Notes: generated by a model not told the origin, from the letters alone. Numbered from the stretch's first letter, positions 9,795 through 29,327 are shown. The stretch is DNA of 48,136 nt from Archaeoglobaceae archaeon (GCA_038893835.1 JAWAQR010000009.1:1-48136), one strand, 5' to 3'. Numbers and translations: made by a program.

Positions 9795-10616
9795 ATGATC
9801 ATCACAGACAACCACATGCACATTTACAGACATCTTGGATTAAAGGCACTGGAGCAGTTCAAATCTGCAGGAGGGACCCATGTGCTTTTAGTTTCTCTTC
9901 TAAGCCATCACTACGACGTTCATCCAAAAGAGGGAAAAGATTTTAAAAGAGTATTCGAAAGTCATCTGAGCTTGGTAAAAAAGGCGAATAAAATTGTAAA
10001 TGCCTATGCTGTTTTAAGCGTTCATCCAGCTGAAATTACGATTCTGGGATCGAGACTGGGATTTGAAAGGGCAGCTGAGATTATGAAAGAAGCCCTAGAA
10101 ATAGCTGGAGAATACGTTGCAAAAGGGGAAGCGATTGCAATAAAGAGCGGTAGACCTCATTATAAAGTTGATGCTTTTGTCTGGAAGCTGAGCAATGAAA
10201 TAATGATGCACGCCTTTGAGATTGCAAAAGAAATAAACTGCGCTGTTCAGCTGCATACGGAGAGCTTTACATTCGAAGGGATGAAAGAAATTGCAGAAAT
10301 GGCAGATAAAGTTGGCTTGAAAAGAGATAAAGTTGTAAAGCATTTCTCACCACCAAAGGTTAAAGAGTTTGAGGAAATTGGCATTTTTCCATCCGTAATT
10401 GCAGGAGATGATAATGCGATAACCGCTGCTAAACAGGGAACTAGATTTGTACTGGAAACGGATTATCTGGATGATCCAAAGCGACCTGGAGCTGTTTTGG
10501 GTCCAAAAACTGTTCCAAAAAAGATAAAAGAGTTGCTGGAAAAAGGTTTTGATGAATCTTTCATCGATGAAATCTGTGCAAGGAACATAGAGAAAATATA
10601 TGGGATAGAGCTATGA
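9795..10616 (+). CDS. TatD-family metal-dependent hydrolase
   Basis: DNHMH, GRPHY, QLHTE, KHF and ETDYLDDPKRPGAVLGP. Confidence 0.87.
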   Translation: MIITDNHMHIYRHLGLKALEQFKSAGGTHVLLVSLLSHHYDVHPKEGKDFKRVFESHLSLVKKANKIVNAYAVLSVHPAEITILGSRLGFERAAEIMKEALEIAGEYVAKGEAIAIKSGRPHYKVDAFVWKLSNEIMMHAFEIAKEINCAVQLHTESFTFEGMKEIAEMADKVGLKRDKVVKHFSPPKVKEFEEIGIFPSVIAGDDNAITAAKQGTRFVLETDYLDDPKRPGAVLGPKTVPKKIKELLEKGFDESFIDEICARNIEKIYGIEL

Positions 10617-11527
10617 AGGGTAAAATACTTGAGGATTTCGCGGTTTTAAATGCTACAATGGATCTGATAAGATCCGGATTTGGGCAGAAGAGGGGGGAAA
10701 AGATTTATCTCCACCCAATTGAAGCGTTGTATTTGCAGCTTATTGGAAAAGCAAACTTCGGTGAGCTAAAGGATGTTGTAGAGTGGGTGAAGAAAAAAGT
10801 GGCCAAGTTTCCGGAGATATTCTTTGTATACCAAGATTTAAGAAAAAAGGGGAAGAAAGTAAGAGTAGAAGATAATTTTATTTTTGTTAAAAAATTATTT
10901 TTACCAATTTCTGAGAAGGATGCGATTTCTTTCGAAGAAGTCAAGAAACTGCTCTCTGAATTTGGCGAGTTCATGCTTGCAATCGTTGATGAGGAGAGTG
11001 AGGTGACATATTATTCCGTAAAAAAACCTGTAATGCAGGGTGAGCAGATTGAAAATTTGCCAAAGATACATGGAAGCTTCTTTAAAGATAGAGTTATAAC
11101 CAAAGACGTTGAGATATTCAGAAAGTACTTTTACGGTAACGAACTCGATGGTTTTGTCGTTCTTTCCATGCTTGAAAGCGTTTATTTGCTGGAGAAAGGT
11201 GTTTTAGAAGTAGACAAGGCTGAGGAGATGCTGGAAATTGCCAAGAATTCGGAAGAATTTGAGGAAAGATTCAAAGTTTACAGAGATTTGAAGGATAGAA
11301 AGTTCGTTGTAAAGACTGGATTTAAGTTTGGGAGTGATTTCAGGGTTTACAGAAAAGTGGAATCACTAGAGCAGCTCCCTCATTCTGAATTCATGATTTC
11401 TATAGTAAAAGATGCAATCAGTGCGAAAGAGTTGTCAAGGACTGTTAGAATTGCAAATAGTGTGCGAAAAAAAGCTGTATTCGTATGGAAAGGAGAGTAT
11501 TTCCTATTTGAATGGGTGAGGATATGA
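10613..11527 (+). CDS. endA: tRNA-splicing endonuclease, homodimeric (alpha2) type
   Basis: Internally duplicated ~300-aa fold. KTGFKFGSDFRVY, PHS and SVRK supply the Tyr-His-Lys triad. Confidence 0.93.
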   Translation: MKGKILEDFAVLNATMDLIRSGFGQKRGEKIYLHPIEALYLQLIGKANFGELKDVVEWVKKKVAKFPEIFFVYQDLRKKGKKVRVEDNFIFVKKLFLPISEKDAISFEEVKKLLSEFGEFMLAIVDEESEVTYYSVKKPVMQGEQIENLPKIHGSFFKDRVITKDVEIFRKYFYGNELDGFVVLSMLESVYLLEKGVLEVDKAEEMLEIAKNSEEFEERFKVYRDLKDRKFVVKTGFKFGSDFRVYRKVESLEQLPHSEFMISIVKDAISAKELSRTVRIANSVRKKAVFVWKGEYFLFEWVRI

Positions 11528-12066
11528 AAATAGTTGTTGGTTCAAAAAATCCGACTAAAATAGAGGGGACAAGGCTTGCATTTGAGCAGTTCTTTGGCAA
11601 AGTAGAGATTGAGAGTGTTGAAATCAAAACAAAGAATCAGCCTTTTGATGAAGAAACAATTAATGGAGCCATAGAAAGGGCTATTAGAAGTTATTCCGAT
11701 GAATTTGATTTCTCAGTCGGAATTGAGGCTGGTTTAATCAGAATTTCACACACGATCAGCGGATATATGGACTTCCAAGTAGCGGCGATTTTCAATGGAG
11801 AAACGTTTACTCTTGGCTTTGGTCCTGGTTTTGAATATCCTAAGAAGGTGGTCGAGCTTGCAAAGGCTGGAATAGAAGTTGGAAAAACGATGGAAAAAAT
11901 CTCAGGAATTGAGCAGATTGGAAAAAAAGTGGGAGCGATATACTACCTGAGCAAAGGAGTAATTTCTAGGATTGAACTCTCAAAAATTGCTGTAACCATG
12001 GCTTTACTGCCCTGGATAAACAGGGAGATATATGAGATAGATAATCAAAAATTTTTAAAACTTTAG
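11524..12066 (+). CDS. yjjX: Inosine/xanthosine triphosphatase
   Basis: VGSKNPTK, QPF..ETINGAIERA, VGIEAG and GAIYYLS. Confidence 0.88.
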   Translation: MKIVVGSKNPTKIEGTRLAFEQFFGKVEIESVEIKTKNQPFDEETINGAIERAIRSYSDEFDFSVGIEAGLIRISHTISGYMDFQVAAIFNGETFTLGFGPGFEYPKKVVELAKAGIEVGKTMEKISGIEQIGKKVGAIYYLSKGVISRIELSKIAVTMALLPWINREIYEIDNQKFLKL

Positions 12067-12080
12067 GTAAAAGTTAAGTT

Positions 12081-12863
12081 GTGTGGCTGAGGATATCGAG
12101 TTCCACAGATAAGAAAGAGATTCTCGAAATCGCTTCAAGACTCAGAGAGCTTGGGGCTAGAGTAGAGATAAGGGAATGGATAGATTGGGATGTTGATGAG
12201 ATACGTGCAGTCAAAGGAAAGCTGAGTGAGCTGAAGAAAAAAGGTATAGATTTGGGCGAATGGGAAAAAAGGATTGAAATAATAAGAGAACTTTTGAAGA
12301 AGAATCTGAGCAAAGAAGACTTTGAATACGAATTAATGAAGAGAATGTTTCCTGACTTATCGCTGGAAGGAAATGTCGAGGAGATTGCTGAGAAGTTGAT
12401 AAATGCAAAAACGATGATGAGAGAGGTTGAGACATTTCTTGCCATAAACGGGATAAAATTTGGGAAGAACATGGAGCTACCAGAGGATCCGGAAGTTTTC
12501 ATCGAAACGTGGGATGAGAGTGCAAAGGAGATAATAAAGGTCAGTTTTTATCCCGTAACGGAAATATACGTTGATGTTATGAGTGTTCTTGGAGCAGATT
12601 TTGGAAAAGTCTCTTCAGCTGATTTTGAGGAAGTTGTTTTGGCAAGTGTTCTGGAGATAATTGGAGAAATGGTGGCGGAAGTTGAGAAATGGGGAGCCAG
12701 AGATCTCAAATCTCTAGCAGAATTGAGCAGCGGTGTAATAGAGGGAGAAGATTGGAACTTCGTCATCGACTGTAGCGAAATATTTGAGAACATAATAAAA
12801 TCACTTGAAAAATCCGGTATATTTAGAGTTTCCGGAAACATCGTAAGGCTGAGGGAGAAATGA
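12081..12863 (+). CDS. Acidic hypothetical protein, possible C-terminal winged helix
   Basis: 260-aa ORF with a GTG start and genome-typical codon usage. ATGA-coupled to kptA. Confidence 0.7.
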   Translation: MWLRISSSTDKKEILEIASRLRELGARVEIREWIDWDVDEIRAVKGKLSELKKKGIDLGEWEKRIEIIRELLKKNLSKEDFEYELMKRMFPDLSLEGNVEEIAEKLINAKTMMREVETFLAINGIKFGKNMELPEDPEVFIETWDESAKEIIKVSFYPVTEIYVDVMSVLGADFGKVSSADFEEVVLASVLEIIGEMVAEVEKWGARDLKSLAELSSGVIEGEDWNFVIDCSEIFENIIKSLEKSGIFRVSGNIVRLREK

Positions 12864-13504
12864 TGGAGGAGATAAGATTTTGTCCCGAACATGGTTTTTA
12901 TAGGGGAGAGTTCTGTAGCTGTGGTGTAAAGGGTGAAGTTGTTCTAGAGAAAGAAAAGGTCGAAAAACTTGGAAAATTCGTTTCTGGGATTTTAAGACAT
13001 TTTCCGCATAAATTCAATCTGAAAATCGATGAAAATGGATGGGTTGATTTCGAATCGCTTTCAAGAGTTGTGGAAAAGAAGTATCGATGGGCAAACAAGT
13101 GGTTGCTCAAAGCCTTGATTTACAGCGATTCGAAGAAGAGATATGAGATGAGGGATGAAAAGATAAGAGCCAGATATGGGCACAGCATTGATGTAAAGCT
13201 AACAGATATGCCATTGTCCAATGAAGATGTTCTATATTATGGCACGAATGAAGAAGAGATGAGTAGATTGCTAGAAATAGGGATAAAACCTGTAAACCAG
13301 AGCTATGTTCACCTCTCAACCACCTTTGAGAAAAGTGTGGAAGTCGCGATTTTGAGGGGTGGAAGACCAATAATACTCGAAATAGATGCAAAAAAGGCGA
13401 GAGAAGATGGAATAAAAATTATAAAGGCTAATGATCACATTGCACTAGCAAAAGAGATCCCGGCAAAGTACATCAAAAAAATTCAGTATTTATCTTCGTC
13501 GTAA
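12860..13504 (+). CDS. kptA: RNA 2'-phosphotransferase (Tpt1/KptA) with an N-terminal Zn-finger-like extension
   Basis: SGILRH, DENGWV, KKRYE, IRARYGHS and VHLS. N-terminal CPEH..CSC. Confidence 0.9.
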   Translation: MMEEIRFCPEHGFYRGEFCSCGVKGEVVLEKEKVEKLGKFVSGILRHFPHKFNLKIDENGWVDFESLSRVVEKKYRWANKWLLKALIYSDSKKRYEMRDEKIRARYGHSIDVKLTDMPLSNEDVLYYGTNEEEMSRLLEIGIKPVNQSYVHLSTTFEKSVEVAILRGGRPIILEIDAKKAREDGIKIIKANDHIALAKEIPAKYIKKIQYLSSS

Positions 13505-13737
13505 TAGTAATATTCTTCCTCTTCGAATTCCTCTTCTTCCTCTTCTTCAAAATCTTCCTCGTAACTTTCTAAATCCTCGATGTCGAATTCCTCGTTTGTG
13601 TCTAAAAGCAGGATTTTTCCTTCCTGATAGATCATAACGCACTCGCAGAACTTGCAGCGAATTTCAACACCCGTATATAAATCAGTTATTTCAATCTCCT
13701 CTCCACATGAGGGGCACATTATTACCTTCACAGCCAT
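13483..13737 (-). CDS. Small zinc-ribbon protein with a very acidic tail (LysW-like fold, no EDWGE end)
   Basis: CPSC...CKFC followed by a poly-Glu and YYYY tail. A TATA box lies ~26-31 nt upstream of the ATG. Confidence 0.7.
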   Translation of the reverse strand: MAVKVIMCPSCGEEIEITDLYTGVEIRCKFCECVMIYQEGKILLLDTNEEFDIEDLESYEEDFEEEEEEEFEEEEYYYYDEDKY

Positions 13738-13759
13738 AGATTTAATTTTTGAGATTCTT

Positions 13760-13815
13760 AGATTTAAATTTTGCGCTCTCAATTAATGGTCAACTGGGGA
13801 AAGTCTTATTAACAG
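13760..13815. promoter_or_regulatory. Divergent BRE/TATA promoters for the zinc-ribbon gene (-) and tRNA-Ser (+)
   Basis: Minus strand GCGCAAAA-TTTAAAT (TTTAAA at 13763-13768). Plus strand GGGAAAGT-CTTATTAA ~25 nt before the tRNA. Confidence 0.55.
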
Positions 13816-13835
13816 TAAAACCTAAAACATCTTGA

Positions 13836-13916
13836 GCTGGGGTTGCCGAGTGGTAAGGCGACAGCCTGCTAAGCTGTTGGGCTTTGCCCGCGTGGGTTCG
13901 AATCCCACCCCCAGCG
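13836..13916 (+). tRNA. tRNA-Ser(GCT)
   Basis: Acceptor stem GCTGGGG/CCCCAGC, anticodon arm ACAGC-CT-GCT-AA-GCTGT, long variable arm, GGTTCGAATCC, discriminator G. CCA is not encoded. Confidence 0.97.
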
Positions 13917-14029
13917 CTTTTATTCTTTGAAAACCTAACAGCTTTTGCTAAAAGAGTTATGAAAATTTTTATACTGATTCCAAAATTTAAGACAGAGTTT
14001 TGCTCAACGTTTCCGATGGTAGAAAAAAC

Positions 14030-14404
14030 ATGAGCATAACTCTTTCCCTACTTGGCCAGTTAATGGCTGTTGACGGGGTTCTCGATTGAAGAAAAGAAAG
14101 AACTTGAAGCTTTGAGCTGGCTACTATCCCCTCAATTGGGGAATACACATTTGCAAATCGAAAAGTGAGTTATAGAAACAACCTTGACAACATAGTCATA
14201 GCGATTTTACTGTATCTGATCAAAAAGAGACTAGAAAAGATCAATATTTCAAATCCTTTTACAGAGGCGCAGAAAGTTGAAAAAAGAGGAGAAAGGGTTG
14301 AACGATTTTGAAATACTCCACTCTGATTCCTTGGAACAAAATAGAAGAGTTGCTGAGAATGATGGATGAAAAAATTGCCGAGTATACGGGGTTAAAAGAT
14401 AACT
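14030..14404 (+). pseudogene. Probable decayed gene fragments downstream of tRNA-Ser
   Basis: Stop-free run of 63 codons at 14120-14311 with no ATG, plus protein-like pieces in other frames (FSIEEKKELEALSW; PWNKIEELLRMMDEKIAEY). Confidence 0.35.
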
Positions 14405-14992
14405 TCATATAATCGGTTGTTCAGGTTCGTTCAAAATTTGAAGGAGTTTTTCCAAAGTATTTACTCCAACTTTAAGCAATCTGAGCAACTGTATCTGGAA
14501 GATTTGTGCAGCTAAAAATGCGTCTGCGAGTGCATTGTGTCTGTAAGGTGTCCTTAATCCATATTTTTTTGCAAGAGCTTCGAGATTTGGTGATTCAACA
14601 TATTTTTCCCCGATAAATCTGCTCAAAACCTTGTCGACCTTCATTATTTCTATCGTTTGAGCTTTAAAATCTTTTAAAGCATTTTTTAAGAAGGCATAGT
14701 CAACTTCAACGCAAAAGCCAACGATTATACTATCTCTGAGCATTTCATAAACTCTTTGAGATATTTCTTCGAAAAAAGGTGCATTTCTGAGATCTCTCTC
14801 ACTTATTCCATGAATCTTCAAAGTTTTTAACTTCAGCCTTTTGGGTTTTACCAGAGAGTAAAAGGAGTTGCTGGATAAAATTTTGAGACCCTCTATTGGA
14901 ATTATTCCAATAGCAATTATTTCATCTTTGTACGGATCTAAACCCGTTGTTTCCAGATCCAAGCTGGCAAATTTCGTGTCCCTTATGTTCAT
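14405..14992 (-). CDS. DEDDh 3'-5' exonuclease (DnaQ/PolC-exo-like)
   Basis: ExoI SLDLETTG, ExoII VD and ExoIII HNALADA. Overlaps the DUF294 gene by 4 nt. Confidence 0.9.
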   Translation of the reverse strand: MNIRDTKFASLDLETTGLDPYKDEIIAIGIIPIEGLKILSSNSFYSLVKPKRLKLKTLKIHGISERDLRNAPFFEEISQRVYEMLRDSIIVGFCVEVDYAFLKNALKDFKAQTIEIMKVDKVLSRFIGEKYVESPNLEALAKKYGLRTPYRHNALADAFLAAQIFQIQLLRLLKVGVNTLEKLLQILNEPEQPII

Positions 14993-16761
14993 ATTCCTCT
15001 CTCCACAAAAAACCTGCCTTTCAAAAACTTTTCAAAATCCTTCACAATTCTAAGCGCATCTTTCAATGCAAACTGATTAATTCTGCTTAAATCTCTGAGC
15101 TTCAAAACGTTGCCCTTCCCTTCTACCTGATTCTTCAATCTCAGGTTTTGCAAAAGCTCGTAGCTGTCTAGAATGCTCTTTACAAAATCTTCATTTAGAA
15201 TCCCCATTTCCACGAGTTTAATCAACCTTTCTCTCGTGTTCGCTATTTCCAGTATTTTATTCTCTAGCGCAAGAACCCTAGTACAGTTCACAATCGGATA
15301 TATTCCAAATTTCTTGAGATCGATCTCATTCACCCCTCTTATACCACCGATCTTCGGCGGTTCTAGCAATGTGGCATCATTTGATAAATGTCTTAGAACT
15401 TGTGCATTCACCCTTTCATTTATGAAGCTAAAAAGTTCGTTTAAAAGCTCCTTTTTTCCATAAATCGCCCTCATGTCGAGAAAGACTGTGAGTAACCTTA
15501 TGTTTTCCGGTGTGAATTCGTTCATCCATTTCCTGAACCTGTTCTTCCATTCCTCTATATCCATGCACCAGTTCATTGCCATATAACCACCACTACACTT
15601 CGGAATGCCTACGAATTCCAAGCTATCATTTACTTTTCTTGCAAAATCCCTCATTCTCTCCCCATCCTCCTCACATATGATCATGTTATCCTGATCCGTC
15701 GCCAATATCTGCTCTTTTCTTGCAGAACTTCCCATGTGAACCCAAACAAATTCTGGAAGCTTTCCAAACTCTCTGGATTGATTTCTCTCAACTATATCTA
15801 TCACCTTTTCTGTTAGCAAATCGTAAAAGCTTGAGATTAGCAATGAGAGTTCGTAAAATCCCATTCCCTTAATTGCAAGGTTCTTTATCGTCTCAAATAT
15901 CTTTTCATTTATGGACTTCACTTCTTCAATACTCGTAGCTTTTCCGAGCTTTCTATGTAAAATTGAAATTGACGTGAAGGGTTCAAATTGGGCCATTATG
16001 TCCTTGATTGAAATGACGCCGAATAATTTCCCATATCTGGTCACAACAAGATGGTTTATCCTTTTAGACGTGAGAATTTGATAAGCTTCAAATAAAGGAC
16101 GGTCGAATTCGATGCTGAACACAGGGCTGCTCATATACGCTGAAACTTTCTCATCCTTGTTTAAACCATGGATTACGAACTTTCTCAAATCCCTGTTTGT
16201 AAAGATTCCCACTGGAGTCATGTCGTTCTTAACAACAACTATGGATCCAACTCCATTTAGCTCCATCTTCACCGCAGCATCTCTTATGCTGGTATATGCA
16301 TCGCAAAATACTGGTTTCTTGGTAATGCAATCTGAAACCCTCATCAGAAGCGCATCGCTTAGCTCCTTTCTCTCGAATAAAGACGCTAGACCTCTATAAT
16401 CTCTTTTTACGATTTTTTCAAAAAATTCTCTGAAAAATTTGTTTTCCGAAGCGATTCTGTCAATATACTCCTTTTTTATCGTGAAGCAAATCGTATCAGA
16501 ATTTGCTACAGCCTTTGAATTTTCGTAAATACCCAGCCCAAACAGATCCCCTTTCTCGAACTCCTCGATCAGTTCCCCGTTTTGGTAGAGCCCCACGCTA
16601 CCCGAGAAAACAATATAAATTTTTTTTGGAATACCAGAAAATATTATTTCTCCCTCCTCAAAGGCTTCAACGTCGATTTTGGTGACGATGAATTCGATTT
16701 CGTCTTCAGTTAAAAGATCGAACGGTTTTATCTTTTTTATGAATTCTCTCGGCGGTATCAT
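14989..16761 (-). CDS. cNMP-binding + CBS-pair + DUF294 nucleotidyltransferase protein
   Basis: N-terminal cNMP fold (GEIIF..GDLFG), two CBS domains, Pol-beta motif MGSSARKEQILATDQDN, CSGGYMA and DLKKFG. Start set at MIPPREF. Confidence 0.9.
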   Translation of the reverse strand: MIPPREFIKKIKPFDLLTEDEIEFIVTKIDVEAFEEGEIIFSGIPKKIYIVFSGSVGLYQNGELIEEFEKGDLFGLGIYENSKAVANSDTICFTIKKEYIDRIASENKFFREFFEKIVKRDYRGLASLFERKELSDALLMRVSDCITKKPVFCDAYTSIRDAAVKMELNGVGSIVVVKNDMTPVGIFTNRDLRKFVIHGLNKDEKVSAYMSSPVFSIEFDRPLFEAYQILTSKRINHLVVTRYGKLFGVISIKDIMAQFEPFTSISILHRKLGKATSIEEVKSINEKIFETIKNLAIKGMGFYELSLLISSFYDLLTEKVIDIVERNQSREFGKLPEFVWVHMGSSARKEQILATDQDNMIICEEDGERMRDFARKVNDSLEFVGIPKCSGGYMAMNWCMDIEEWKNRFRKWMNEFTPENIRLLTVFLDMRAIYGKKELLNELFSFINERVNAQVLRHLSNDATLLEPPKIGGIRGVNEIDLKKFGIYPIVNCTRVLALENKILEIANTRERLIKLVEMGILNEDFVKSILDSYELLQNLRLKNQVEGKGNVLKLRDLSRINQFALKDALRIVKDFEKFLKGRFFVERGI

Positions 16762-16867
16762 TGATTTATGATTGTAATAACGTAAATTAAATTTTCTATT
16801 ATCATAACAAATGACAAAAATCGTAAAATTTAAATAGTGTGAAATATTTATCATAATCGGTGATCGT
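16762..16867. promoter_or_regulatory. Divergent promoter region with repeated TTAT-N-ATAA pseudo-palindromes
   Basis: TTTAAATA at 16829-16836, GGTGA RBS at 16859, TTATCATAA at 16799 and 16848. Confidence 0.5.
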
Positions 16868-17110
16868 ATGCCTTGGCCGCCTAAGGTGTTTTGGGTAGGT
16901 GTAGTGTTGATATATGGAACTGCTGCCCTCTGCTGGATTCTCGAAGCGACGATGAAGATCAACAAGATACCAGCGGCACCCATATGGTATACAGCGATCT
17001 GGGGAACCTTCCTGCTACCAGTAATAGTCTCCATTCTGTACTTCTACTTCCCAGAGAGAGCTGAGGCTAAGAGGGCTAAGGAAAAGGCTGAAAAGAAGGA
17101 GGTGACATAA
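16868..17110 (+). CDS. Small two-TM membrane protein, partner of the solute:sodium symporter (YjcH/DUF485/DUF4212-like position)
   Basis: 80 aa with two hydrophobic helices and a charged tail. It has an RBS and abuts the symporter gene. Confidence 0.8.
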   Translation: MPWPPKVFWVGVVLIYGTAALCWILEATMKINKIPAAPIWYTAIWGTFLLPVIVSILYFYFPERAEAKRAKEKAEKKEVT

Positions 17111-18724
17111 ATGGCTGAAGGCGTAGATCCCATTGTGATAGGGATTGTAGCCTTATATCTCATCGCCGTCGTCGTAATCGGTTATTTCTCTCGTCTCAGG
17201 CTTAAGAGTGCAATGGACTATTATGTGGCTGGTAGAAGAATTGGTGCCGTCGTCAACGGTTTGGCTTTAGAATCAACGTATCTCAGCCCAGCATCGATGC
17301 TCGGTTTACCTGCATACATATTCTTAATCGGTTATCCATTCTGGTGGGCGATGGTCGCAATCATTTGTGGAATGCCTTTAGCGACGCTTTTAACAGCTTC
17401 AGCCCTTAGAAAATATGCTCCAGTAAGTTTCGCTGATTACTACGCGGATCGCTTTGGTGATGAAAAATTGAGATGGTGGATTGGAATAATAGTCATTGTA
17501 GGCGCTATACTGTACATAACTTTATCACTGGTCGGCATGGCTCTTTTCATGGTTGCAATTCTTAAGATGCCTTACATCATAGCCCTTATTATTGGAACTA
17601 TAATTACGATGTTTTACGTAGTTTATGGAGGTATGATTGCGACAAGTTGGAACGCTGCTATGCAGGCAGTGGTGATGAGTTTAGCTGCAATAATAGCTGC
17701 GATTGCAATTGTCTGGCAGCTAGGCGGATTTGAGGGAGTTTATTTCGCAGCTCAGCAATCATATGCAAAAATCTGGAACACTCCAGCCGATGCTCCTGAT
17801 GTAGCACATATCTTCAGCGGATCTTGGGTGGCAATTCTTTGCTGGTACTTCATCTGGCATTACGGCTTTGCTACGATGCCGTACACAGTTGTGCGCTTCT
17901 TCACGGTGATGGACATAAAGACTGCAAGAAGGAGCATTTTCTGGTGCACTTTGATTGCAGGTGCTTTCTACGTTGCACTTCAGCTCATCGGAATAACTGC
18001 AAAGTACATGATTGAAAATTACCACCCAATCGCGGTTGCAGCTGGTAAAAATCTGACAGCAATGCAAGTTCTCGGACAAATTCAGAAGACTTATGGAATA
18101 GGAACTGTAGTAGATTATTCGATGATTGCAGCAGTTGAAGCACTTGGAAACCCAGCAATTCTTGGCATTCTTTGCGCAGGTGGTTTAGCGATCGCGATGT
18201 CTACAGCTGCTGGTTGGGCAGTTGTGGTTAATACGCTGATCGCAAGGGACTGGATGGTAAAACTCCTGAAATGGAAGAAGGCTGAAGAGAAACCGGTATT
18301 ATATGGAAGAATTATAGCATTCATCTTCCTGCTAATTGGATTCCTGATCGCAATTGCGCCTCCAGCACTAGTTCTAGACTTAAGTGGCTGGGCCTTTGTG
18401 GTCATAATATGTAGCATTGGTCCTGGACTGATACTTGGACTCTGGTGGAAGAGGGCAACTAGAGCTGCGATGTGGATAACTGCAATTGTAATGTTCATTC
18501 TGAGCATGATCGCATGGATGAGAGCTTACTTTGTGCTAGGTCATCATGCTAGATTCTTCCTCAACGACATCTTGTTTGGCAATCCGAATGCTTTGATTAC
18601 ACCGCATCAAACCTGGTTGATTCCAGTAGGTTTCATAGTCTTTATAATAGTTTCACTGTTAACCAAGCCGCCTGAGGAAGAAAGAGTACAGAAGTACTGT
18701 GTTGAACTTACAAAGGAAGTTTAA
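17111..18724 (+). CDS. Sodium:solute symporter, ActP-like monocarboxylate permease
   Basis: DYYVAGR, YLSPASMLG, GGMIATSW, MPYTVVRFFTV and AMSTAAG. About 13 TM segments. Confidence 0.9.
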   Translation: MAEGVDPIVIGIVALYLIAVVVIGYFSRLRLKSAMDYYVAGRRIGAVVNGLALESTYLSPASMLGLPAYIFLIGYPFWWAMVAIICGMPLATLLTASALRKYAPVSFADYYADRFGDEKLRWWIGIIVIVGAILYITLSLVGMALFMVAILKMPYIIALIIGTIITMFYVVYGGMIATSWNAAMQAVVMSLAAIIAAIAIVWQLGGFEGVYFAAQQSYAKIWNTPADAPDVAHIFSGSWVAILCWYFIWHYGFATMPYTVVRFFTVMDIKTARRSIFWCTLIAGAFYVALQLIGITAKYMIENYHPIAVAAGKNLTAMQVLGQIQKTYGIGTVVDYSMIAAVEALGNPAILGILCAGGLAIAMSTAAGWAVVVNTLIARDWMVKLLKWKKAEEKPVLYGRIIAFIFLLIGFLIAIAPPALVLDLSGWAFVVIICSIGPGLILGLWWKRATRAAMWITAIVMFILSMIAWMRAYFVLGHHARFFLNDILFGNPNALITPHQTWLIPVGFIVFIIVSLLTKPPEEERVQKYCVELTKEV

Positions 18725-18763
18725 ATTTTTTAATTTAATTAAAATTATTTTTTTGGTGGTTAT

Positions 18764-20677
18764 ATGCAGATTTTTAAAGAATTGTGGAAAATGGAAAAAG
18801 ATGATCCGAAGAGGTTCTGGAATGAATTAGCAATGAAGGCAATGGATGACATTTATTGGTTCAAAGCATGGGAAAAGGTCTTTGAATGGGATTATCCGAG
18901 ATTTTCATGGTTCAAAGGAGGGAAAACAAACATCGCCTATAACTGTCTCGATTATAAAGTTAAAAGATTTGCATCCAAACCAGCGTATATTTATGAGAAT
19001 CCAGAGCTGGATTTAAGTTACTCTATAACATATTCCCAGCTCTTCAGCTTGGTTAAAAAATTCGCCTCAGCTCTTCGCGGATCCGGAATTAAAAGGGGAG
19101 ATAGAGTTTTACTTTATCTTCCCAATTCTATAGAAGCTGCTGCAATGATCCTAGCATGCGCGAGGATTGGTGCAATCTCTGTAACAGTCTTTGCAGGTTT
19201 TTCGCCGAAGGCTGTAGCTGATAGAATTGAGCTTACGACACCAAAGCTGATATTCACGCAGGACTTCGCATCTAGAAGGGGGAAAGTTATAAGGCTTAAG
19301 GAGAACATAGACATCGCTTTGAGCATGGTTCCAAAGCTGGAAGCTAAGGTAGTTTTAAAGAGAGCTATGCCAGAATTAGATCTTGAGCTTTCTGACAGGG
19401 ATATTCTGCTCAAGGATTTTCTAAAACTCGGTAAAGGAGAGAGTAGTGAATATGTGGAGATGGATGCAATGGATCCCATATTCGTGATGCCAACATCTGG
19501 AACAACTGCGAAGCCGAAACCAGTCGTGCATGTGCAAGGAGGGTATCAGATATGGAACTACTACGCAGCCAAATGGATCTATGGTCTGAACTCTGAAGAT
19601 GTGATATTCAACACATCTGACATCGGCTGGATTGTGGGGCAGAGTTACATGATCTTCGGCCCTCTGTTAACTGGAGCTACCTGCATTCTTTACGATGGGA
19701 CACCAGACTATCCAGAGCCAGGAGTATGGTGGGAAGTCGTTGAAAGAAACAGGGCAACTTTGATCTGGACTTCTCCAACAGGAGCTAGGATATTGAGAAA
19801 GATAGGAGTTGAAAAGGCCAAAGAGTATGATCTAAGTTCTGTTAAACGTGTTGTTTGTGCGGGAGAAGTTCTAAATCCTGAGGTTTGGTCATGGCTTTAT
19901 AGGGATGTATTTGAGGAACAAATACCAGTGATAGATCACATGTGGCAAACTGAAACAACAGGTGCAATCTTTGGTTATCCCTATGGTCTGCTGGGCGATG
20001 AAGTAAAGAAGTTCATAAAACCCGGCTCAGCTGGCTTACCCTTACCAGGTGTCGATCCAGTCGTTATGGATGAGAATGGAAAAGAGCTTGGATCGAATGA
20101 AAAGGGAGTGCTATATTTGAGAAGACCATTCCCCGGACTTACACCGACGCTTTGGGACAGTTTTGAAAGATATGTCCGCTCATATTGGGAAACTGGAGTT
20201 TCCGGGCTTTACTGCACAGGAGATGCAGCATTCATAGATGCAGATGGATACGTTTGGTTCACTGGAAGGGCTGATGAAGTTATAAAAATTGCAGGACACA
20301 GAATTGGAACAATTGAAGTTGAAAACGCCCTTATCAGCCATCCAGCGGTTGCTGAAGCAGGTGTCTGTGGAGTTCCAGATGAGCTTCGTGGAGAGGTTGC
20401 TGCTGCATTCGTCGTGCTAAAGCAGGGATTTTATCCGAGCGAGGAATTAAAAAAGAATATAATAGAACACGTTAGGAAAACACTTGGACCGATAGTTGTC
20501 TTCAGAGACATACAGTTCGTAAACATGCTACCAAAGACGAGAAGCGGAAAGATCATGCGAAGAGTGATGAAAAGACTTTTCCTCGGTCAGGAACTTGGAG
20601 ATCTTTCTACAATTGAAGAAGAGGCTTCGATCGCAGAAATTCGTGAAGCTGTGGAAAAGCTGAGGCGAGTTGCATGA
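18764..20677 (+). CDS. AMP-forming short-chain acyl-CoA synthetase (Acs/PrpE family)
   Basis: TSGTTAKPK, SDIGW, WQTE, GRADEVIKIAGHRIG and LPKTRSGK. Confidence 0.92.
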   Translation: MQIFKELWKMEKDDPKRFWNELAMKAMDDIYWFKAWEKVFEWDYPRFSWFKGGKTNIAYNCLDYKVKRFASKPAYIYENPELDLSYSITYSQLFSLVKKFASALRGSGIKRGDRVLLYLPNSIEAAAMILACARIGAISVTVFAGFSPKAVADRIELTTPKLIFTQDFASRRGKVIRLKENIDIALSMVPKLEAKVVLKRAMPELDLELSDRDILLKDFLKLGKGESSEYVEMDAMDPIFVMPTSGTTAKPKPVVHVQGGYQIWNYYAAKWIYGLNSEDVIFNTSDIGWIVGQSYMIFGPLLTGATCILYDGTPDYPEPGVWWEVVERNRATLIWTSPTGARILRKIGVEKAKEYDLSSVKRVVCAGEVLNPEVWSWLYRDVFEEQIPVIDHMWQTETTGAIFGYPYGLLGDEVKKFIKPGSAGLPLPGVDPVVMDENGKELGSNEKGVLYLRRPFPGLTPTLWDSFERYVRSYWETGVSGLYCTGDAAFIDADGYVWFTGRADEVIKIAGHRIGTIEVENALISHPAVAEAGVCGVPDELRGEVAAAFVVLKQGFYPSEELKKNIIEHVRKTLGPIVVFRDIQFVNMLPKTRSGKIMRRVMKRLFLGQELGDLSTIEEEASIAEIREAVEKLRRVA

Positions 20678-21426
20678 CACCCAAGGAATTTGCTAAGGTC
20701 ATAGAACGCTATATACGTCCGCAGACTTTTCCAATAGCTTTTAAGTTTGGTGATGATGAAAGGGCTAGAAAGTTGAAGGACTTGACAATCTGCCAGATCT
20801 ACAACATTTCACGCAGATACGGCTGGTTTCTGAAATTTGACGTTGAAACCGCTTGCCCCTTAGGAATCATCGCTTATGGATTCGCCGAGCCAGATGAGCT
20901 TTACAAATCAGGAAAGCTTGCATATGAAGCTGGATATGCTATGAACGAAGAAATTGGAAAGAAATTCGAAGAAGTTGTGCCAAAGCTCAAAGGTTACAGT
21001 TCTTGCCTCGTTGCGCCATTGGAAAGAGAGGACTTCATCCCAAATCCAGACTTCGTTGTTGTTTACGCAACTCCAGCGCAAATTCTTCGCTTTGTTCACG
21101 CTTACCTTTACAACAAGGGCGGGAAAGTTGAAACTTCAATCCTCGGCAGAGGCGCATGTGCCGAGTTTCTTGATGCGTTCATACACAAGAAGCTAAGGAT
21201 CGTGATCCCATGCTATGGCGATAGACTTTTTGGCTTAACGCAAGATCACGAAATGGCGGTGGCTTTTCCGTTTGAAATCGCGGAAGAGATCGCGAAAGGT
21301 CTTGAAGAGACACACAAGCGGGGAATTCGCTATCCAATTCCGAACACAGCTCTTCGTGTTCCTTTACCAATGATAGAGAGTTACAAGAAGTCAGTTGAAT
21401 CCATGAGAAAGTCTCGCGAGAGCTAA
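20674..21426 (+). CDS. DUF169 family protein
   Basis: ICQ..SRRYG, CPLG, GAC and PCYGDR. ATGA overlap with the ligase. Confidence 0.8.
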   Translation: MTPKEFAKVIERYIRPQTFPIAFKFGDDERARKLKDLTICQIYNISRRYGWFLKFDVETACPLGIIAYGFAEPDELYKSGKLAYEAGYAMNEEIGKKFEEVVPKLKGYSSCLVAPLEREDFIPNPDFVVVYATPAQILRFVHAYLYNKGGKVETSILGRGACAEFLDAFIHKKLRIVIPCYGDRLFGLTQDHEMAVAFPFEIAEEIAKGLEETHKRGIRYPIPNTALRVPLPMIESYKKSVESMRKSRES

Positions 21427-23328
21427 GGCGCATCTTTCGATCGAATCGAAAAGAATACAGTCAAGATTTTTCTTCTTTTTTTCAAAATCTTCCGGATTTG
21501 TCACATAAACGACGATCTCATCATGAAAGAGCTCCTTCATAATCTCTTCCGGTATAACCCAGCTCGGTGGAGCGACTGCATAGCAAAAAACTACTGCGCC
21601 CACGTTTTCATCTTTTTTGAGCAAATCTAGGATTCTTTTGAGCTTTAAAGCGTCGAGACCACTGAAAGAAACGTCAACGGGATTGTCTCTGTGTGTTATC
21701 GGTGGTAAAATTTTTCTGAGTTCTTCGAGCGTTTCTCCGCTTAACTTCGAAAGTCTTCCACCGTTGCTCTCGAGGATGTCTGCGAAAACAATTCCGAGAC
21801 CAGCTTGTATTGTCACTACTGCAACGCTTCTAATTCGCCCGAATTTCTCCGCAAGTACTGCAACATCTATGAGCTCTGTCGGAGATTCAACAACAATTCC
21901 CTTCGCCTGCTTCACGGCTGAAGTAAAGATCTTATAATTCCCCGCTAAACTTCCCGTGTGACTCAAGGAAGCTTTATCTGCAACTTCGCTTCTCCCAGCT
22001 TTTAAAACAACTGCAATTTTCCCTGCTTCATTGAGCTTTTTCAGTGCATCGAAGAAAGCTCTCCCATTTTCGAGTCCTTCAACGTAAACTGCAACGACTT
22101 TCGTGCTCTTGTCTTTTGCGAGGAACTCGAGCACGTCTGGAAAATCGACGTCGCAACGATTGCCTAAATGAATCACGTAACTAAAACCGACGTCGCTGAA
22201 CCTGTGCAAAACGTAGTGACAAATGCCACCGCTTTGGGAAACCAAAGCAATTTTTCCGGGCTTTAACTTGCTGAACTCTGGCGTGAAGCTTGCGTTTAAG
22301 TTCTCGAGCACGTTTACAAAGCCAAAAACGTTTGGACCTATGATTCTTATCCATTTGCTCAATTCTCTCAGTCTTCCCTCTCTTTTCTTTCCTTCTTCGA
22401 TTTCCGCTTCTTTAAATCCTGCAGAGATTATTAGAGCTTCTTTAGCCTTCCCGATTAGTTTCTCAACAGCCTCAACTACCTTTTCTGCCGGCAAGGCTAT
22501 TATCGCGAGATCTACCTCAGGAAGATCTTCAATCGAGTTCAAAACCTTCAAACCATCGATTTCCGACAGATTTGGATTCACAGGGTAGATTTCCGCTTTG
22601 CTTGTTTTCAGGCTTTGCAAAACTGCGTAGCCGACTTTCAGGGGATTGCTTGAAGCTCCAACCACTGCGATCTTCTTTGCATTAAAACTCACTTCTCGGA
22701 TCTTTGTTTCGAAGTCTCTTCTCTTTCCGATCACGATTCTCGCATCTGCTACCGCATAGCCTTTTTCGTAAACAAAGACTGGGTTGAGATCCATTTCTAA
22801 GATGTTCTCTTTTTCAACGATCTCGCTTACCTTAACCGCAAGCTCTATAATCGCTTCTTTATCGAACTTCTTTCCTCGATAGCTAAAGATATCCTTCGAC
22901 CTGAGCTCGTTGAGCATTTCTTCAACGTCATTTTTGTTCACTGGGATTAAGCGAACGCTGTAGTCCTTTAAAGCCTCAACGTAAAATCCGCCAAGACCCA
23001 AGGCTAAAAAGCTTCCAAACTGCGAATCTTCTGCAACTCCGATGAAGATCTCAAGCCCTTTTTCGAGCATTGGCTGAACGTTGACACCTTCTGCAAATCT
23101 AATCGAGATAAGCTCTTTGAAGTTCTCAACTGCCTCTTTTTCAGAGTTTACAAATCTAACTCCTCCAACCTCGCTTTTGTGCGAAATTCTACGTGAAGCA
23201 ACTTTCAAAACAGCTGGAAAGCCAATAACTTTAAGGGCTTGAAGAAGTTCCTTCTCGTTTTTTACAAAAACACACTTTGCAGTCCTTATCCCATAGCTTT
23301 CGAGCAAAGCCTTTGCTTCATGTTCCAT
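21391..23328 (-). CDS. ADP-forming acyl-CoA synthetase, fused beta-alpha
   Basis: ATP-grasp region (EHEAK, HKSEVGGV, DLNPV) followed by the CoA-binding region (VGAS, GPN, SQSG) and phospho-His SHTGSLAG. Confidence 0.9.
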   Translation of the reverse strand: MEHEAKALLESYGIRTAKCVFVKNEKELLQALKVIGFPAVLKVASRRISHKSEVGGVRFVNSEKEAVENFKELISIRFAEGVNVQPMLEKGLEIFIGVAEDSQFGSFLALGLGGFYVEALKDYSVRLIPVNKNDVEEMLNELRSKDIFSYRGKKFDKEAIIELAVKVSEIVEKENILEMDLNPVFVYEKGYAVADARIVIGKRRDFETKIREVSFNAKKIAVVGASSNPLKVGYAVLQSLKTSKAEIYPVNPNLSEIDGLKVLNSIEDLPEVDLAIIALPAEKVVEAVEKLIGKAKEALIISAGFKEAEIEEGKKREGRLRELSKWIRIIGPNVFGFVNVLENLNASFTPEFSKLKPGKIALVSQSGGICHYVLHRFSDVGFSYVIHLGNRCDVDFPDVLEFLAKDKSTKVVAVYVEGLENGRAFFDALKKLNEAGKIAVVLKAGRSEVADKASLSHTGSLAGNYKIFTSAVKQAKGIVVESPTELIDVAVLAEKFGRIRSVAVVTIQAGLGIVFADILESNGGRLSKLSGETLEELRKILPPITHRDNPVDVSFSGLDALKLKRILDLLKKDENVGAVVFCYAVAPPSWVIPEEIMKELFHDEIVVYVTNPEDFEKKKKNLDCILFDSIERCALALARLSHGFN

Positions 23329-23335
23329 TAAAAAA

Positions 23336-24988
23336 TTAGAAAATTTCTGGTGCTCTGTATTCTCCAAAAACTTCTCTGAGCGCATCTGCTATCTCACCAA
23401 GTGTAGCTTTGGCTTTAACGCAATCTATAACGTATGGCATCAGGTTTGCATCACCTTCAGCAGCCTTCTTTAGCCTTTCAAGCGCCCTGTCTACATCTCC
23501 CTTATCCCTGTTTTCTCTAAACTTTCTTAGCCTTGTAATCTGCTTTTCAACGACTTCCTTTGGAACCCTTAGAAGTTCGATCTGAATTTCCTCCTCTATT
23601 TGATACTTGTTAACTCCTACAACTGTCAGTTCTCCACTTTCAATCGCCTTCTGCTTTTCATAAGCCGACTTCTGAATTTCCCTCTGCACAAATCCACTTT
23701 CTATGGCCTTTATCATTCCGCCCATTTCATCTATTTTTTCAATGTACTTCATCGCCTCTTCTTCAATCTTGTCTGTAAGCCATTCCACATAATAGCTTCC
23801 ACCCAAGGGATCGATAACATCAGCTACTCCAAGCTCTTCAGCGATTATCTGCTGGGTCCTTAGAGCTATTCTTACTGCCTTCTCCGTTGGCAGACAAAGT
23901 GCCTCATCAAAGCTGTTTGTATGCAAGCTTTGGCAACCTCCAAGCACAGCTGCCAATGCCTGCATTGCAACCCTAACAATGTTCAATTCAGGCTGCTGAG
24001 CTGTTAACGTGCAACCAGCAGTTTGAACATGGAAACGAAGCATCATCGACTGCGGTTTCTTTGCATTAAATCGCTCCTTCATTATTCTTGCCCATAATCT
24101 TCTAGCAGCCCTGAACTTCGCAACCTCTTCGAAAAGATTGTTTCCAGCAGAGAAAAAGAAGCTGAGCTGTGGAGCAAAGTCATCAACATCTATCCCACGT
24201 TCCAGCACTTTTTCCACATAAGTTATGCCGTTTGCAAGGGTGAATGCAACCTCTTGCACAGGCGTAGCGCCAGCTTCTTCCATGTGATACCCTGAAATGC
24301 TTATAGAATTCCAGTTTGGCATTTCTTTCGCGCAGAAGACGATTATATCTGTCGCCAGTCTGAGTGATGGTTCTGGGGGATATATATAGGTTCCCCTTGC
24401 TATATATTCTTTCAACATGTCATTCTGAACCGTTCCGCGAAGCTCTGCGATGTTAGCTCCTTGAGATTGCGCTACTAGTATGTACATGGCTAGGATTTGA
24501 GCACATGTGGAATTTATCGTCATTGAAGTCGAAACCTTTGCCAAGGGAATTCCGTCGAACAGGATTTGCATGTCCTCTATTGTGGATATTGCAACCCCAA
24601 CTTTCCCAACTTCACCAAGAGCCATTGGATGATCGCTGTCATAGCCTATTTGTGTTGGTAAGTCGAAAGCAACACTTAAACCAGTCTGACCTTGCGATAA
24701 AAGGAATTTGTACCTCTTATTCGTCTCTTCAGCGGTTCCAAAACCAGCATATTGTCTCATTGTCCAAAATCTGCCACGATACATTGTTGGATAAATTCCG
24801 CGAGTGAATGGATAAACACCAGGATATCCAAGCTTCTTTTCATACTCTGGATATTCTATGCCAAGATCTTCCGGAGTGTAAAGTCTATCTACAACAAAAC
24901 CAGAACTGACTTTGAACTCCTTTTTCCTTTCAGGAGCCTTTTTTATAAATGGAGCTACAACTTTTTCCTCCCATTCTCTCTTGTTCAT
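23336..24988 (-). CDS. Methylmalonyl-CoA mutase, large (substrate-binding) subunit
   Basis: YPFTRG, RQYAGFG, KEYIARG, SISGYH and [11 protein letters not shown]. Confidence 0.95.
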
Positions 24989-24992
24989 AAAA

Positions 24993-25403
24993 TCACCCCA
25001 ATCTTATAATTGGCGAATCTTTCAAAACCTTATCACCCACTTTCACCAAAATCTCAACAACCTTTCCACTTATCGAAGCCTTTATCGGATTCTCCATTTT
25101 CATCGCTTCGATTACAGCAACAATATCTCCTTCCTTAATTTCATCTCCTACCTTCACAAAGATCTTTGTTACAATTCCATTCATCGGAGCCTTTATAACC
25201 TTTCCTTCCACTTTCTCAGCTTTAACAACTTTCTCAGCTATTTTTTCTGATGGAGTTTCAATCGAAATTGTCTTAACTTCAATCTTCGGCCTTACTTCTA
25301 TCAAAGCCGTTTTTCCGTTCACCTTCACTTGGTATAAATTTGCACCAACCTCCTCAACTTCAACCTCGTAAATTTTTCCGCCAACCTCAACTTTATAAAT
25401 CAT
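24993..25403 (-). CDS. Biotin carboxyl carrier protein
   Basis: EAMKMEN biotinylation motif. Start set at MIYKVEV. Confidence 0.93.
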
Positions 25404-25528
25404 GACATCATCCTCGCAGAAAGCTTCCAAACTTTTGGAACTTCCTTGATTTCAATCGGCTTCTCCTTTTCCTTCAAATACTTATGAATTGCTGCCAAAG
25501 CTGCTGCAAATTCTTCAGCTGACAGCAT
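25400..25528 (-). CDS. 42-aa acyl-CoA carboxylase/decarboxylase small subunit (epsilon/PccX/delta-C-terminal-like), absent from the ORF track
   Basis: Hand translation: [42 protein letters not shown]. It fills the gap between carboxyltransferase and BCCP, with an ATGA overlap. Confidence 0.8.
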   Translation of the reverse strand: MLSAEEFAAALAAIHKYLKEKEKPIEIKEVPKVWKLSARMMS

Positions 25529-25533
25529 AAATA

Positions 25534-27078: not shown

Positions 27079-27079
27079 C

Positions 27080-27469
27080 TCAACCCTCCACGAATTCTAA
27101 AAGAACACCATGTGTGCTTTTTGGATGCAGAAATGCAACCTTCTTCCCTCCAGCCCCTATTCTTGGCCTCTCATCGATCAACTTTATTCCAGAATTCTTT
27201 GCAATTTCTAGCGATCTCTCTATGTTTTCCACATTTATCGCTATATGATGCACACCCTCGCCACGGGAAGATATGAATTTTGCAATTACAGAATCTTCTG
27301 CAGTTGCTTCAAGCAGCTCTATCTTGCTTTCCCCAATCGGAAGCATCGCCACTTTTACCTTCTGCTCCTTAACCTCCTCTATATTTTTAACCTTAAATCC
27401 GAGTGACTCAAACGTCTTAATCGCCTCTTCTAGGTTTTTAACAGCTATTCCTATATGATCAATCTTCAT
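27080..27469 (-). CDS. mce: Methylmalonyl-CoA epimerase
   Basis: [21 protein letters not shown] and [13 protein letters not shown]. Confidence 0.95.
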
Positions 27470-27475
27470 AGCATT

Positions 27476-29323: not shown

Positions 29324-29327
29324 CTAA

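Follow-up and report, generated by a model that had tools for sequence, protein, structure and literature searches.

In Pseudomonas, a gene pair encoding a sensor nucleotidyltransferase (NTase) and a DEDDh exonuclease is a direct target of CrbS/R (MxtR/ErdR), and nucleotidylation has been suggested for it (PMC5715377; bioRxiv 10.64898/2026.09.07.749794). Genes for DUF4212 and sodium:solute symporter family (SSS) proteins were found to show cofitness with a 'COG2905 (RNase T domain protein)' gene in their vicinity (Price et al., bioRxiv 10.1101/072470). Here we describe an archaeal pair of this kind, located in a 48,136-nucleotide stretch of DNA (the window) from an Archaeoglobaceae archaeon (GCA_038893835.1 JAWAQR010000009.1; host genome assembly of 1.17 Mb in 35 contigs). 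Its two minus-strand genes stand back to back with an operon for a small membrane protein, an SSS transporter, an acyl-CoA synthetase (Acs) and a DUF169 protein. We favor the reading that the NTase and the DEDDh protein are the writer and the eraser of a nucleotide mark on a protein, to which we assign a probability of roughly 45%. The features are, in window coordinates:

14405 to 14992, minus strand: DEDDh (DnaQ-like) exonuclease, 195 amino acids (Pfam RNase_T 2.7e-27, 96.8 bits; TIGR00573 dnaq 109 bits)
14989 to 16761, minus strand: sensor NTase, 590 amino acids (cNMP-like barrel, CBS pair, DUF294 and DUF294_C in Pfam)
16444 to 16665, minus strand: cNMP-binding-like barrel of the NTase, residues ~33-106 (PF00027, 25.7 bits against a cut-off of 27.5)
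15982 to 16359, minus strand: CBS pair of the NTase, residues ~135-260 (PF00571, two stretches, 1.3e-21; PDB matches to CBS domains)
15010 to 15969, minus strand: predicted GlnE/DrrA-like NTase module, residues 265-590 (helical lead-in, Pol-beta core with G-x11-D-x-D, HEPN-like DUF294_C)
16762 to 16867, no strand: divergent spacer, 106 bp (two conserved A/T-rich blocks)
16868 to 17110, plus strand: small hydrophobic membrane protein, 80 amino acids (reading frame runs up to the base that precedes the SSS start)
17111 to 18724, plus strand: SSS transporter, 537 amino acids (SSF PF00474, 1.5e-48)
18764 to 20677, plus strand: adenosine monophosphate (AMP)-forming acetate/short-chain acyl-CoA synthetase, Acs, 637 amino acids (ACAS_N, AMP-binding, AMP-binding_C)
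20674 to 21426, plus strand: DUF169 protein, 250 amino acids (PF02596, 3.2e-47)

An NTase profile recovered 80 loci, 18 archaeal and 62 bacterial, the latter from Nitrospirota, Desulfobacterota, 'Deltaproteobacteria' and Bacillota. DEDDh directly adjoins the NTase in 77 of these loci, so the pairing named in the original prediction is real and no product of chance. The three loci lacking an adjoining DEDDh gene are L070, whose contig ends 33 nt past the NTase gene, L095 and L099 (numbers beginning with L, G and P are our handles for loci, genomes and family members). The 77 pairs are arranged on the same strand in 59 cases and convergently in 18, mostly in Bacillota, with an intergenic gap of -3 to +46 nt in most of them. 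In the window, the stop codon of the NTase gene and the start codon of the DEDDh gene share an ATGA, as the translational coupling proposed at the outset would have it. Identities of the NTase and of DEDDh to the window copies correlate across 75 loci with r = 0.95, a figure inflated by kinship. Among 41 related archaeal genomes, a DEDDh homologue occurs in 13, each time beside DUF294 and nowhere else; the archaeal loci of the 80-locus set overlap these genomes, so the two sets are not independent.

Fusions of the two proteins occur in both orders. P0130 is a single DEDDh-CBS-CBS-DUF294-DUF294_C chain in which the DEDDh domain occupies the place of the barrel, and P0160 has the reverse order, CBS-DUF294-DUF294_C-DEDDh. 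A further candidate, L079, in which a long NTase reading frame seemed to overlap DEDDh, was rejected as an NTase-DEDDh fusion; it consists of two different frames of one locus, probably owing to a frameshift. Complex prediction, proposed alongside the original prediction as a check on it, gave the NTase-DEDDh pair a score of 0.75 in three runs, compared with 0.00 for the best of three controls. Of 157 solved complexes, 116 attained the mark for this score, as did 2 of 215 mismatched pairs; this calibration is rough, since our own alignments were used. At least 87% of the contacts agreed between runs, and the predicted local distance difference test score (pLDDT) of the partner was at least 82. 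The predicted interface involves residues 2-4, 6, 27-35, 89 and 91 of the NTase, at its N-terminal barrel, and residues 36-41 and 149-174 of DEDDh, including the helix that bears H152 and D157. The barrel is thus predicted to be the docking surface for DEDDh. Since the NTase has no solved relative by sequence, it is unlikely that this score reflects a memorized structure. Overall, the adjacency, the fusions, the predicted complex, the co-inheritance and the co-occurrence indicate that the NTase and DEDDh form a functional unit.

The NTase has an intact catalytic center. Its translation carries HMGSSARKEQILATDQDN, that is, GS-x2-R-x-EQ-x3-TDQD, the Pol-beta motif named in the original prediction, and the Pol-beta G-S...D-x-D (GSSARKEQILATDQD) is accompanied by a third acidic residue. 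G344, R348, E350, D356, Q357, D358 and D429 (590-residue numbering) are invariant in 50 sequences. DUF294 (PF03445; 111.2 bits, 4.5e-32, cut-off 21) and DUF294_C (PF10335; 90.9 bits, 8.6e-26, cut-off 22.5) both score above their cut-offs. A PDB sequence search with the whole protein returned CBS and cNMP domains only, and a profile of 47 NTase modules found nothing below E 1.6 in the PDB, leaving no solved relative detectable by sequence. The family is large: a profile of the NTase module recovered 2342 clusters (50% identity, E ≤ 1e-30) among 1.84 billion representatives. In a quick tree of the 47 modules, with the root placed on Bacillota, a clade of Desulfobacterota and Nitrospirota is nested within a grade of Archaeoglobi; the non-monophyly of the latter requires three changes, at least two of them forced by starred branches, which hints at transfer between domains of life in either direction.

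We modeled the NTase module (residues 265-590) from 47 sequences (pLDDT 93.6) and compared the model with solved structures using VIA-align. The best matches were the adenylylation (AT) domain of GlnE (Z 27.7, root-mean-square deviation 2.9, 298 residues aligned), the deadenylylation (AR) domain of GlnE (Z 27.4) and the AMPylation domain of DrrA (Z 25.5, 294 residues). These three align over 294-299 residues and therefore span the whole module. Weaker matches were partial DrrA chains (Z ~12), HEPN domains (~10, covering the C-terminal helical part only), the aminoglycoside NTases AadA, ANT(4') and AAD(9) (Z ~7-8; Foldseek E ~4e-3) and Hailong HalB (Z 7.0), and a CD-NTase was found by Foldseek with E 0.32. 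Foldseek agreed on the leading class, with E 5e-9 to 4e-8 for GlnE and DrrA (DrrA E 5e-9, TM score 0.72). These data support the assignment of the modeled module to the GlnE/DrrA protein-AMPylating fold, by a wide margin over other classes. The spacing G344-x11-D356-x-D358 also fits the motif of GlnE and DrrA. All characterized members of the GlnE/DrrA class write or remove AMP on protein tyrosines, as also described in PMC12663964. The predicted fold is our strongest pointer to a protein acceptor.

The catalytic residues of the DEDDh partner (D12, E14, D98, H152 and D157) are invariant in 44 partners, and its model has a pLDDT of 92.9. The nearest solved folds are the DinG exonuclease, a Cas-linked DnaQ, the PolC exonuclease and DNA polymerase III (Pol III) epsilon; the best sequence matches are likewise to family models of Pol III epsilon, PolC and DinG. 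The protein is not a Pol III epsilon equivalog, scoring 64.5 bits with dnaQ_proteo (TIGR01406) against a cut-off of 222.7 and falling far below the cut-offs of the other epsilon equivalog models, and its host is an archaeon. DEDDh partners from Bacillota carry an extra N-terminal ~70-90 residues, in which several rows (loci L084-L115) share a conserved Y-F-Y-E-x-D-C-x-x-L-N-R-K stretch.

DEDDh is one of several hydrolases coupled to this NTase core. PHP domains are fused to the same NTase in P0123, P0124 and P0259. A genome of the same phylum (G036) encodes a 602-residue AP_endonuc_2-DUF294-DUF294_C fusion (L034 9339-11147, minus strand) that lacks a DEDDh neighbor and whose AP_endonuc_2 domain is a xylose-isomerase-like TIM barrel, and P0272 is a 702-residue fusion of a GDSL/SGNH hydrolase to CBS-DUF294-DUF294_C. 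When 14 members of atypical length were picked from 150 listed, one carried DEDDh, one PHP and one GDSL, and the remaining 11 carried extra sensors only (PAS, Cache, canonical cNMP). The repeated coupling of one NTase core to non-homologous hydrolases fits the prediction of a writer-eraser system, and it parallels GlnD, in which an NTase is paired with an HD domain. A protein-O-AMP bond would present the geometry that a 3'-5' exonuclease cleaves, namely X-O-P(5'-nucleoside) to X-OH and a 5'-nucleoside monophosphate (5'-NMP). That a nuclease can act in this way is illustrated by RNase Z, which acts as a deAMPylase (PMC12663964).

The NTase had been described as a cNMP-CBS-CBS sensor, and its parts fare differently. 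The CBS pair is intact. Sensing of cyclic nucleotides by the barrel is doubtful, because the Arg that binds phosphate in canonical cNMP domains is missing: its site in the phosphate-binding cassette, just ahead of the [ST]-A, is occupied by A, S, L or Y in 50 NTase sequences, with no Arg among the four commonest residues. The cNMP_binding score is also below its cut-off. Cys92 in the barrel and Cys389 in the NTase core are invariant in 50 homologues, and Cys153 in the first CBS domain is nearly so. A redox input through these cysteines (C92, C153 and C389) is conceivable.

Within Archaeoglobi, the pair has a strong link to the transporter. Of 12 archaeal loci that are orthologous, nine have the small transmembrane protein and the SSS gene next to the pair. 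The SSS gene of the remaining three lies 16 kb away (G002), lies on another contig (G023) or was not found at E ≤ 1e-20 (G008). The 41 related genomes, which as kin are not independent, divide into 12 with the pair and an SSS orthologue, one with the pair only, one with SSS only and 27 with neither. In the SSS-only genome (G014, 91% complete), the gene stands at a contig start. The best NCBIfam match of the SSS protein is to the VC_2705 family (TIGR03648; 183.5 bits, below the cut-off of 320.75), and it is not an ActP equivalog (TIGR02711, 117.7 bits against 1099; NF006903, 153.5 against 750). The 80-residue protein has no DUF4212 or DUF485 match in Pfam at E values up to 10; one of four orthologues scanned (L028) shows a faint DUF485 match (E 0.36). 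It is a probable small symporter subunit.

Acs exceeds the cut-off of the subfamily model NF001208 (668.3 bits against 657), falls below that of the equivalog TIGR02188 (653.9 against 724.95) and scores lower with PrpE models. Comparison of the window with the five complete loci closest to it shows Acs intact in three of the six, absent from two (G005 and G016) and reduced to a 50-codon remnant in one (G009). This ~50-codon remnant lies between SSS and DUF169 (L030 13137-13289; L036 7848-8000), and in L023 and L033 the SSS gene is followed directly by DUF169, which is always retained. The remnant and the clean absences imply that Acs loss was recent and repeated. SSS, rather than Acs, is therefore the conserved companion of the pair in Archaeoglobi. 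DUF169 is mentioned in the literature and, judging from the search listing, is not characterized there.

The region to the right of the operon (21391-34745) encodes a full methylmalonyl-CoA route (large and B12 subunits of the mutase, a carboxyltransferase, a biotin carrier and an epimerase-type glyoxalase-fold protein). It also encodes an ADP-forming acyl-CoA synthetase, a 4-hydroxybutyryl-CoA dehydratase-like HpaB-family protein, an enoyl-CoA hydratase, an acyl-CoA dehydrogenase and thiolase-like pairs with ChsH2-type OB/zinc-ribbon proteins. Some of these genes are of beta-oxidation type. Given this dense acyl-CoA/methylmalonyl-CoA block, the operon probably serves the uptake and activation of acids such as acetate or propionate.

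We propose that the two minus-strand genes would form one regulatory machine. Its writer would be the 590-residue GlnE/DrrA-type NTase, gated by a ligand through the CBS pair and perhaps by the conserved cysteines, which would move a nucleoside monophosphate, most likely AMP, from a nucleoside triphosphate to a hydroxyl of a protein target. The eraser would be the 195-residue DEDDh protein, held on the N-terminal cNMP-like barrel of the NTase, where it would hydrolyze the X-O-P(5'-nucleoside) phosphodiester and free the 5'-NMP. The switch may be wired to the operon of the two-subunit symporter (small membrane protein, SSS, Acs and DUF169), which would supply short-chain carboxylates to the adjoining acyl-CoA/methylmalonyl-CoA pathway. 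The likeliest output would be control of carboxylate uptake or activation, with the NTase imposing the mark and the nuclease relieving it. In this scheme we infer that the acceptor is a protein, which protein it is, which nucleotide is used, what signal is read and in which direction the mark acts. A more far-reaching version, which we offer tentatively, is that DEDDh is a dedicated protein de-nucleotidylase seated on the degenerate barrel of a GlnE/DrrA-type AMPylase, that this sensor-gated complex switches carboxylate transporters, and possibly acyl-CoA synthetases, in bacteria and archaea, and that PHP, EndoIV-like and SGNH domains serve as alternative erasers elsewhere.

Published genetics supports part of this scheme. 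In P. putida, deletion of the nuclease gene pp_0353 delays growth on pyruvate, as do deletions of actP-I and yjcH, and deletion of the NTase gene pp_0354 has no effect on pyruvate (PMC9927547). An effect of the nuclease deletion only is what would be expected if the writer inhibits and the eraser relieves. On acetate, both deletion mutants grow normally (PMC9927547; bioRxiv 10.64898/2026.09.07.749794).

A number of observations weigh against a protein-directed switch on carboxylate transport. In P. alloputida, both deletions lower growth on propionate and transporter mutants do not (bioRxiv 10.64898/2026.09.07.749794), so the pair has outputs beyond ActP and a simple switch, with the NTase turning the transporter off and the nuclease turning it on, is incomplete. 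The literature that we searched reports no biochemical activity for any member of the family, in line with the statement in the original prediction that no mechanism had been demonstrated. A common fold does not prove a common acceptor. By sequence and fold, DEDDh is an ordinary DnaQ-like nucleic-acid exonuclease, bearing no mark of a protein-directed enzyme, and PHP and AP_endonuc_2/EndoIV-type domains are also typical processors of nucleic-acid 3' ends. The proposal that the nuclease is an eraser rather than a proofreader stands in part: the alternative hydrolase domains fit an eraser role, and this ordinary exonuclease character weighs against it. More broadly, the idea that the NTase nucleotidylates a protein and the nuclease reverses this is helped by the fold, the unity of the pair, the alternative hydrolases and part of the Pseudomonas genetics, and hurt by the propionate phenotypes of both mutants.

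The link to the operon is subject to similar limits. The archaeal genome G008 carries the pair and has no SSS orthologue at the threshold given above, and the link between the pair and Acs is loose. No SSS gene occurs within 10 kb in 61 of the 62 bacterial loci, the exception being L053, and 94 neighboring reading frames from nine bacterial loci revealed no consistent third neighbor in Pfam. TIGR03648-like matches were found in four of five pair-bearing bacterial genomes, one of them weak and only one above the cut-off; the fifth genome (G044) has the pair and no such match, and SSS was rejected as a universal partner or target. Of the module first envisaged, with symporter and Acs tied to the pair, the SSS link is strong in Archaeoglobi and weak in the bacteria sampled, and the Acs link is loose.

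In favor of a tie to transport, further DUF294 paralogues lie beside transporters. G022 encodes a second, shorter NTase (CBS-CBS-DUF294-DUF294_C, 475 residues; L035 5696-9005, minus strand) that lacks a nuclease and immediately follows the gene for another SSF-family symporter, of 590 residues. In L054 (2-4614, minus strand), DUF294 is joined to a canonical cNMP domain (61.8 bits) and CBS and is followed by an MFS gene and Acs, with no DEDDh. An MFS gene adjoins the DUF294 NTase of L095 (9920-13187), again without DEDDh. Among the Bacillota loci that carry the pair, several of Dethiobacter type have DnaE, PFK, pyruvate kinase, a thioesterase and DUF1015 upstream, and L087 has a histone-deacetylase-family protein.

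A free or RNA-borne nucleotide as the substrate of DEDDh is a serious rival to a protein mark. In its first form, which we consider unlikely, the sensor-gated NTase would make a free linear nucleotide or oligonucleotide that DEDDh degrades, and this second messenger would act on transporters or other effectors. Such a system would explain why a self-contained two-gene module appears in variable genomic contexts and why the NTase core is joined to PAS, Cache, canonical cNMP and CBS sensors in the manner of signaling outputs (extra sensors only in the 11 of 14 atypical members). The DEDDh, PHP and AP_endonuc_2 partners belong to nucleic-acid phosphodiesterase families, and Hailong HalB, an oligonucleotide-making NTase, is among the weak structural matches. 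However, the protein AMPylators match far better (Z 25-28) than HalB (Z 7.0) or the CD-NTase (Foldseek E 0.32). The conserved neighbors include no evident receptor domain, and PADLOC yielded no defense-system match for the NTase; it likewise gave none for the small protein or DUF169, and only generic DEDDh matches for the nuclease.

Editing of RNA 3' ends is somewhat less likely again. Here an RNA, for instance a tRNA, a small RNA or the transporter message, would receive untemplated tails from the NTase and lose them to DEDDh, and the balance would set the stability or function of the RNA and hence the expression of uptake genes. The closest relatives of DEDDh, being nucleic-acid 3'-5' exonucleases, suit this role, the nuclease-only pyruvate phenotype is also compatible with it, and Henriquez et al. 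raised the idea that the pp_0353 product degrades mRNA (PMC9927547). On the other hand, the structural matches listed do not include a poly(A) polymerase, a CCA-adding enzyme or a terminal uridylyltransferase, an absence that is not an exclusion; Rfam finds only two tRNAs in the window; and the convergent order in 18 of 77 loci, together with the many sensor fusions, does not suggest an mRNA-specific device.

It is very improbable that the NTase adenylylates a metabolite or xenobiotic, with the nuclease unrelated or scavenging. Aminoglycoside NTases come second in structural similarity, behind GlnE and DrrA, and the neighborhood is rich in acyl-CoA chemistry, but the gap in structural score is large (Z 25-28 versus 7-8). 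Modification of a small molecule would also leave unexplained why a phosphodiesterase is obligately present and physically bound, and why sensor domains and fusions occur. A DNA repair or proofreading exonuclease placed here by coincidence, with no functional tie to the NTase or the transporter, would account for the best sequence matches of DEDDh (the Pol III epsilon, PolC and DinG models) and is strongly disfavored by the side-by-side placement of the two genes in 77 of 80 loci from both archaea and bacteria, by fusions in both orders, by the complex score of 0.75 against 0.00 for controls and by the confinement of DEDDh to the side of DUF294 in the 41 archaeal genomes.

Translation of the reading frames and their Pfam matches agree with the gene coordinates and domain content given originally, with one refinement at the NTase start. 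The longest NTase reading frame encodes 681 residues (14989-17034, minus strand), with a 91-codon N-terminal extension (16762-17034) that intrudes 167 nt into the small-membrane-protein gene on the opposite strand. Because homologues are 586-606 residues long and align from M92 over 100% of the 590-residue query, the true start is almost certainly M92 at 16761, which places the gene at 14989-16761 and the spacer at 16762-16867. With this correction, the divergent spacer, previously put at ~105 bp, measures 106 bp. Open NTase frames of 680-684 residues are also present in the relatives G015 and G016, so automatic annotation may choose the wrong start. The closest named NTase homologues are from Archaeoglobaceae and Archaeoglobus.

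An alignment of six relatives shows invariant A/T-rich blocks of the AAAATTTAAATA and TAAATTAAA types in the spacer, which are likely back-to-back archaeal promoters. A scan for sigma-70 promoters and terminators gave counts equal to chance and is not applicable to an archaeal host. Apart from its two tRNAs, Rfam identified nothing across the whole window, with no riboswitch or small RNA near the operon. To the left of the pair (10613-13917) lie genes for a tRNA-splicing endonuclease, a DUF84 NTPase, the RNA 2'-phosphotransferase Tpt1 and tRNA-Ser(GCU); no tie between these tRNA-processing genes and the NTase-DEDDh pair was seen in other loci. The ~470 bp between tRNA-Ser and the DEDDh stop (13930-14404) contain only reading frames of 29-49 codons, with shifting plus-strand frames, and may be a decayed gene beside the tRNA.

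If the writer-eraser reading is correct, DEDDh would represent a new class of deAMPylase, or eraser, for the biology of AMPylation. It would explain the long-noted CrbS/R targets in the Pseudomonas and Vibrio-type acetate, pyruvate and propionate regulons, and would mean that reversible nucleotidylation controls nutrient uptake in archaea and that post-translational control of solute uptake is widespread across two domains of life. The archaeal pair is compact and is predicted to form a complex, making it attractive for biochemistry and structure determination, and its proteins may be thermostable given their origin in Archaeoglobaceae.

Among known systems, GlnE and GlnD resemble the archaeal NTase in their NTase fold (GlnE Z 27.7 and 27.4), in the G-x11-D-x-D motif and in uniting, within a single enzyme or complex, writing and removal under the control of sensors. 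Removal of AMP by GlnE relies on its other NTase domain, and in GlnD the remover is an HD domain. In the archaeon, by contrast, the candidate remover is a DEDDh protein, a CBS pair and a cNMP-like barrel take the place of an ACT domain or regulatory linker as sensors, and the NTase has no detectable sequence similarity to solved GlnE. DrrA/SidM and SidD of Legionella offer a fold match over 294 residues and a separate eraser protein that reverses the mark. DrrA is a secreted effector that targets Rab GTPases of the host, and the fold of its eraser is that of a phosphatase (PMC12663964), whereas the archaeal genes occupy a housekeeping metabolic locus and the candidate eraser belongs to the DEDDh family. 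RNase Z, as deAMPylase for SelO, provides the precedent for eraser chemistry, being a nuclease that hydrolyzes protein-AMP phosphodiesters (PMC12663964); it differs in its nuclease family, in having a pseudokinase (SelO) as the writer and in the lack of genetic linkage between RNase Z and SelO.

The arrangement of the operon recalls that of DUF4212 (TIGR03647) and the VC_2705-type SSS transporter (TIGR03648), in which a small membrane protein stands directly upstream of SSS with an NTase-exonuclease pair next door and in which DUF4212/SSS and COG2905/RNase T genes are cofit in Shewanella and P. stutzeri (bioRxiv 10.1101/072470). Unlike these, the archaeal SSS protein scores only 183.5 bits (cut-off 320.75) and its small partner matches neither DUF4212 nor DUF485. 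The closest counterpart is PP_0354/PP_0353 of P. putida/alloputida KT2440 (also Pflu5625 of P. fluorescens), an equivalence that rests on domain descriptions in the papers rather than on sequence alignment. It has the same two-gene architecture and order and is likewise tied to genes for the uptake and activation of acetate, pyruvate and propionate (actP, yjcH and acs) (PMC5715377; PMC9927547). In Pseudomonas, this tie runs through a common two-component regulator, whereas in the archaeon the pair divergently adjoins the transporter operon and no CrbS/R is evident. The archaeal pair is therefore a member of a kind already known and discussed in bacteria. To that kind we add its archaeal distribution, a corrected NTase start, the GlnE/DrrA fold assignment, fusions in both orders, alternative hydrolase partners, the predicted docking of the nuclease on the degenerate barrel, and SSS, rather than Acs, as the conserved companion in Archaeoglobi.

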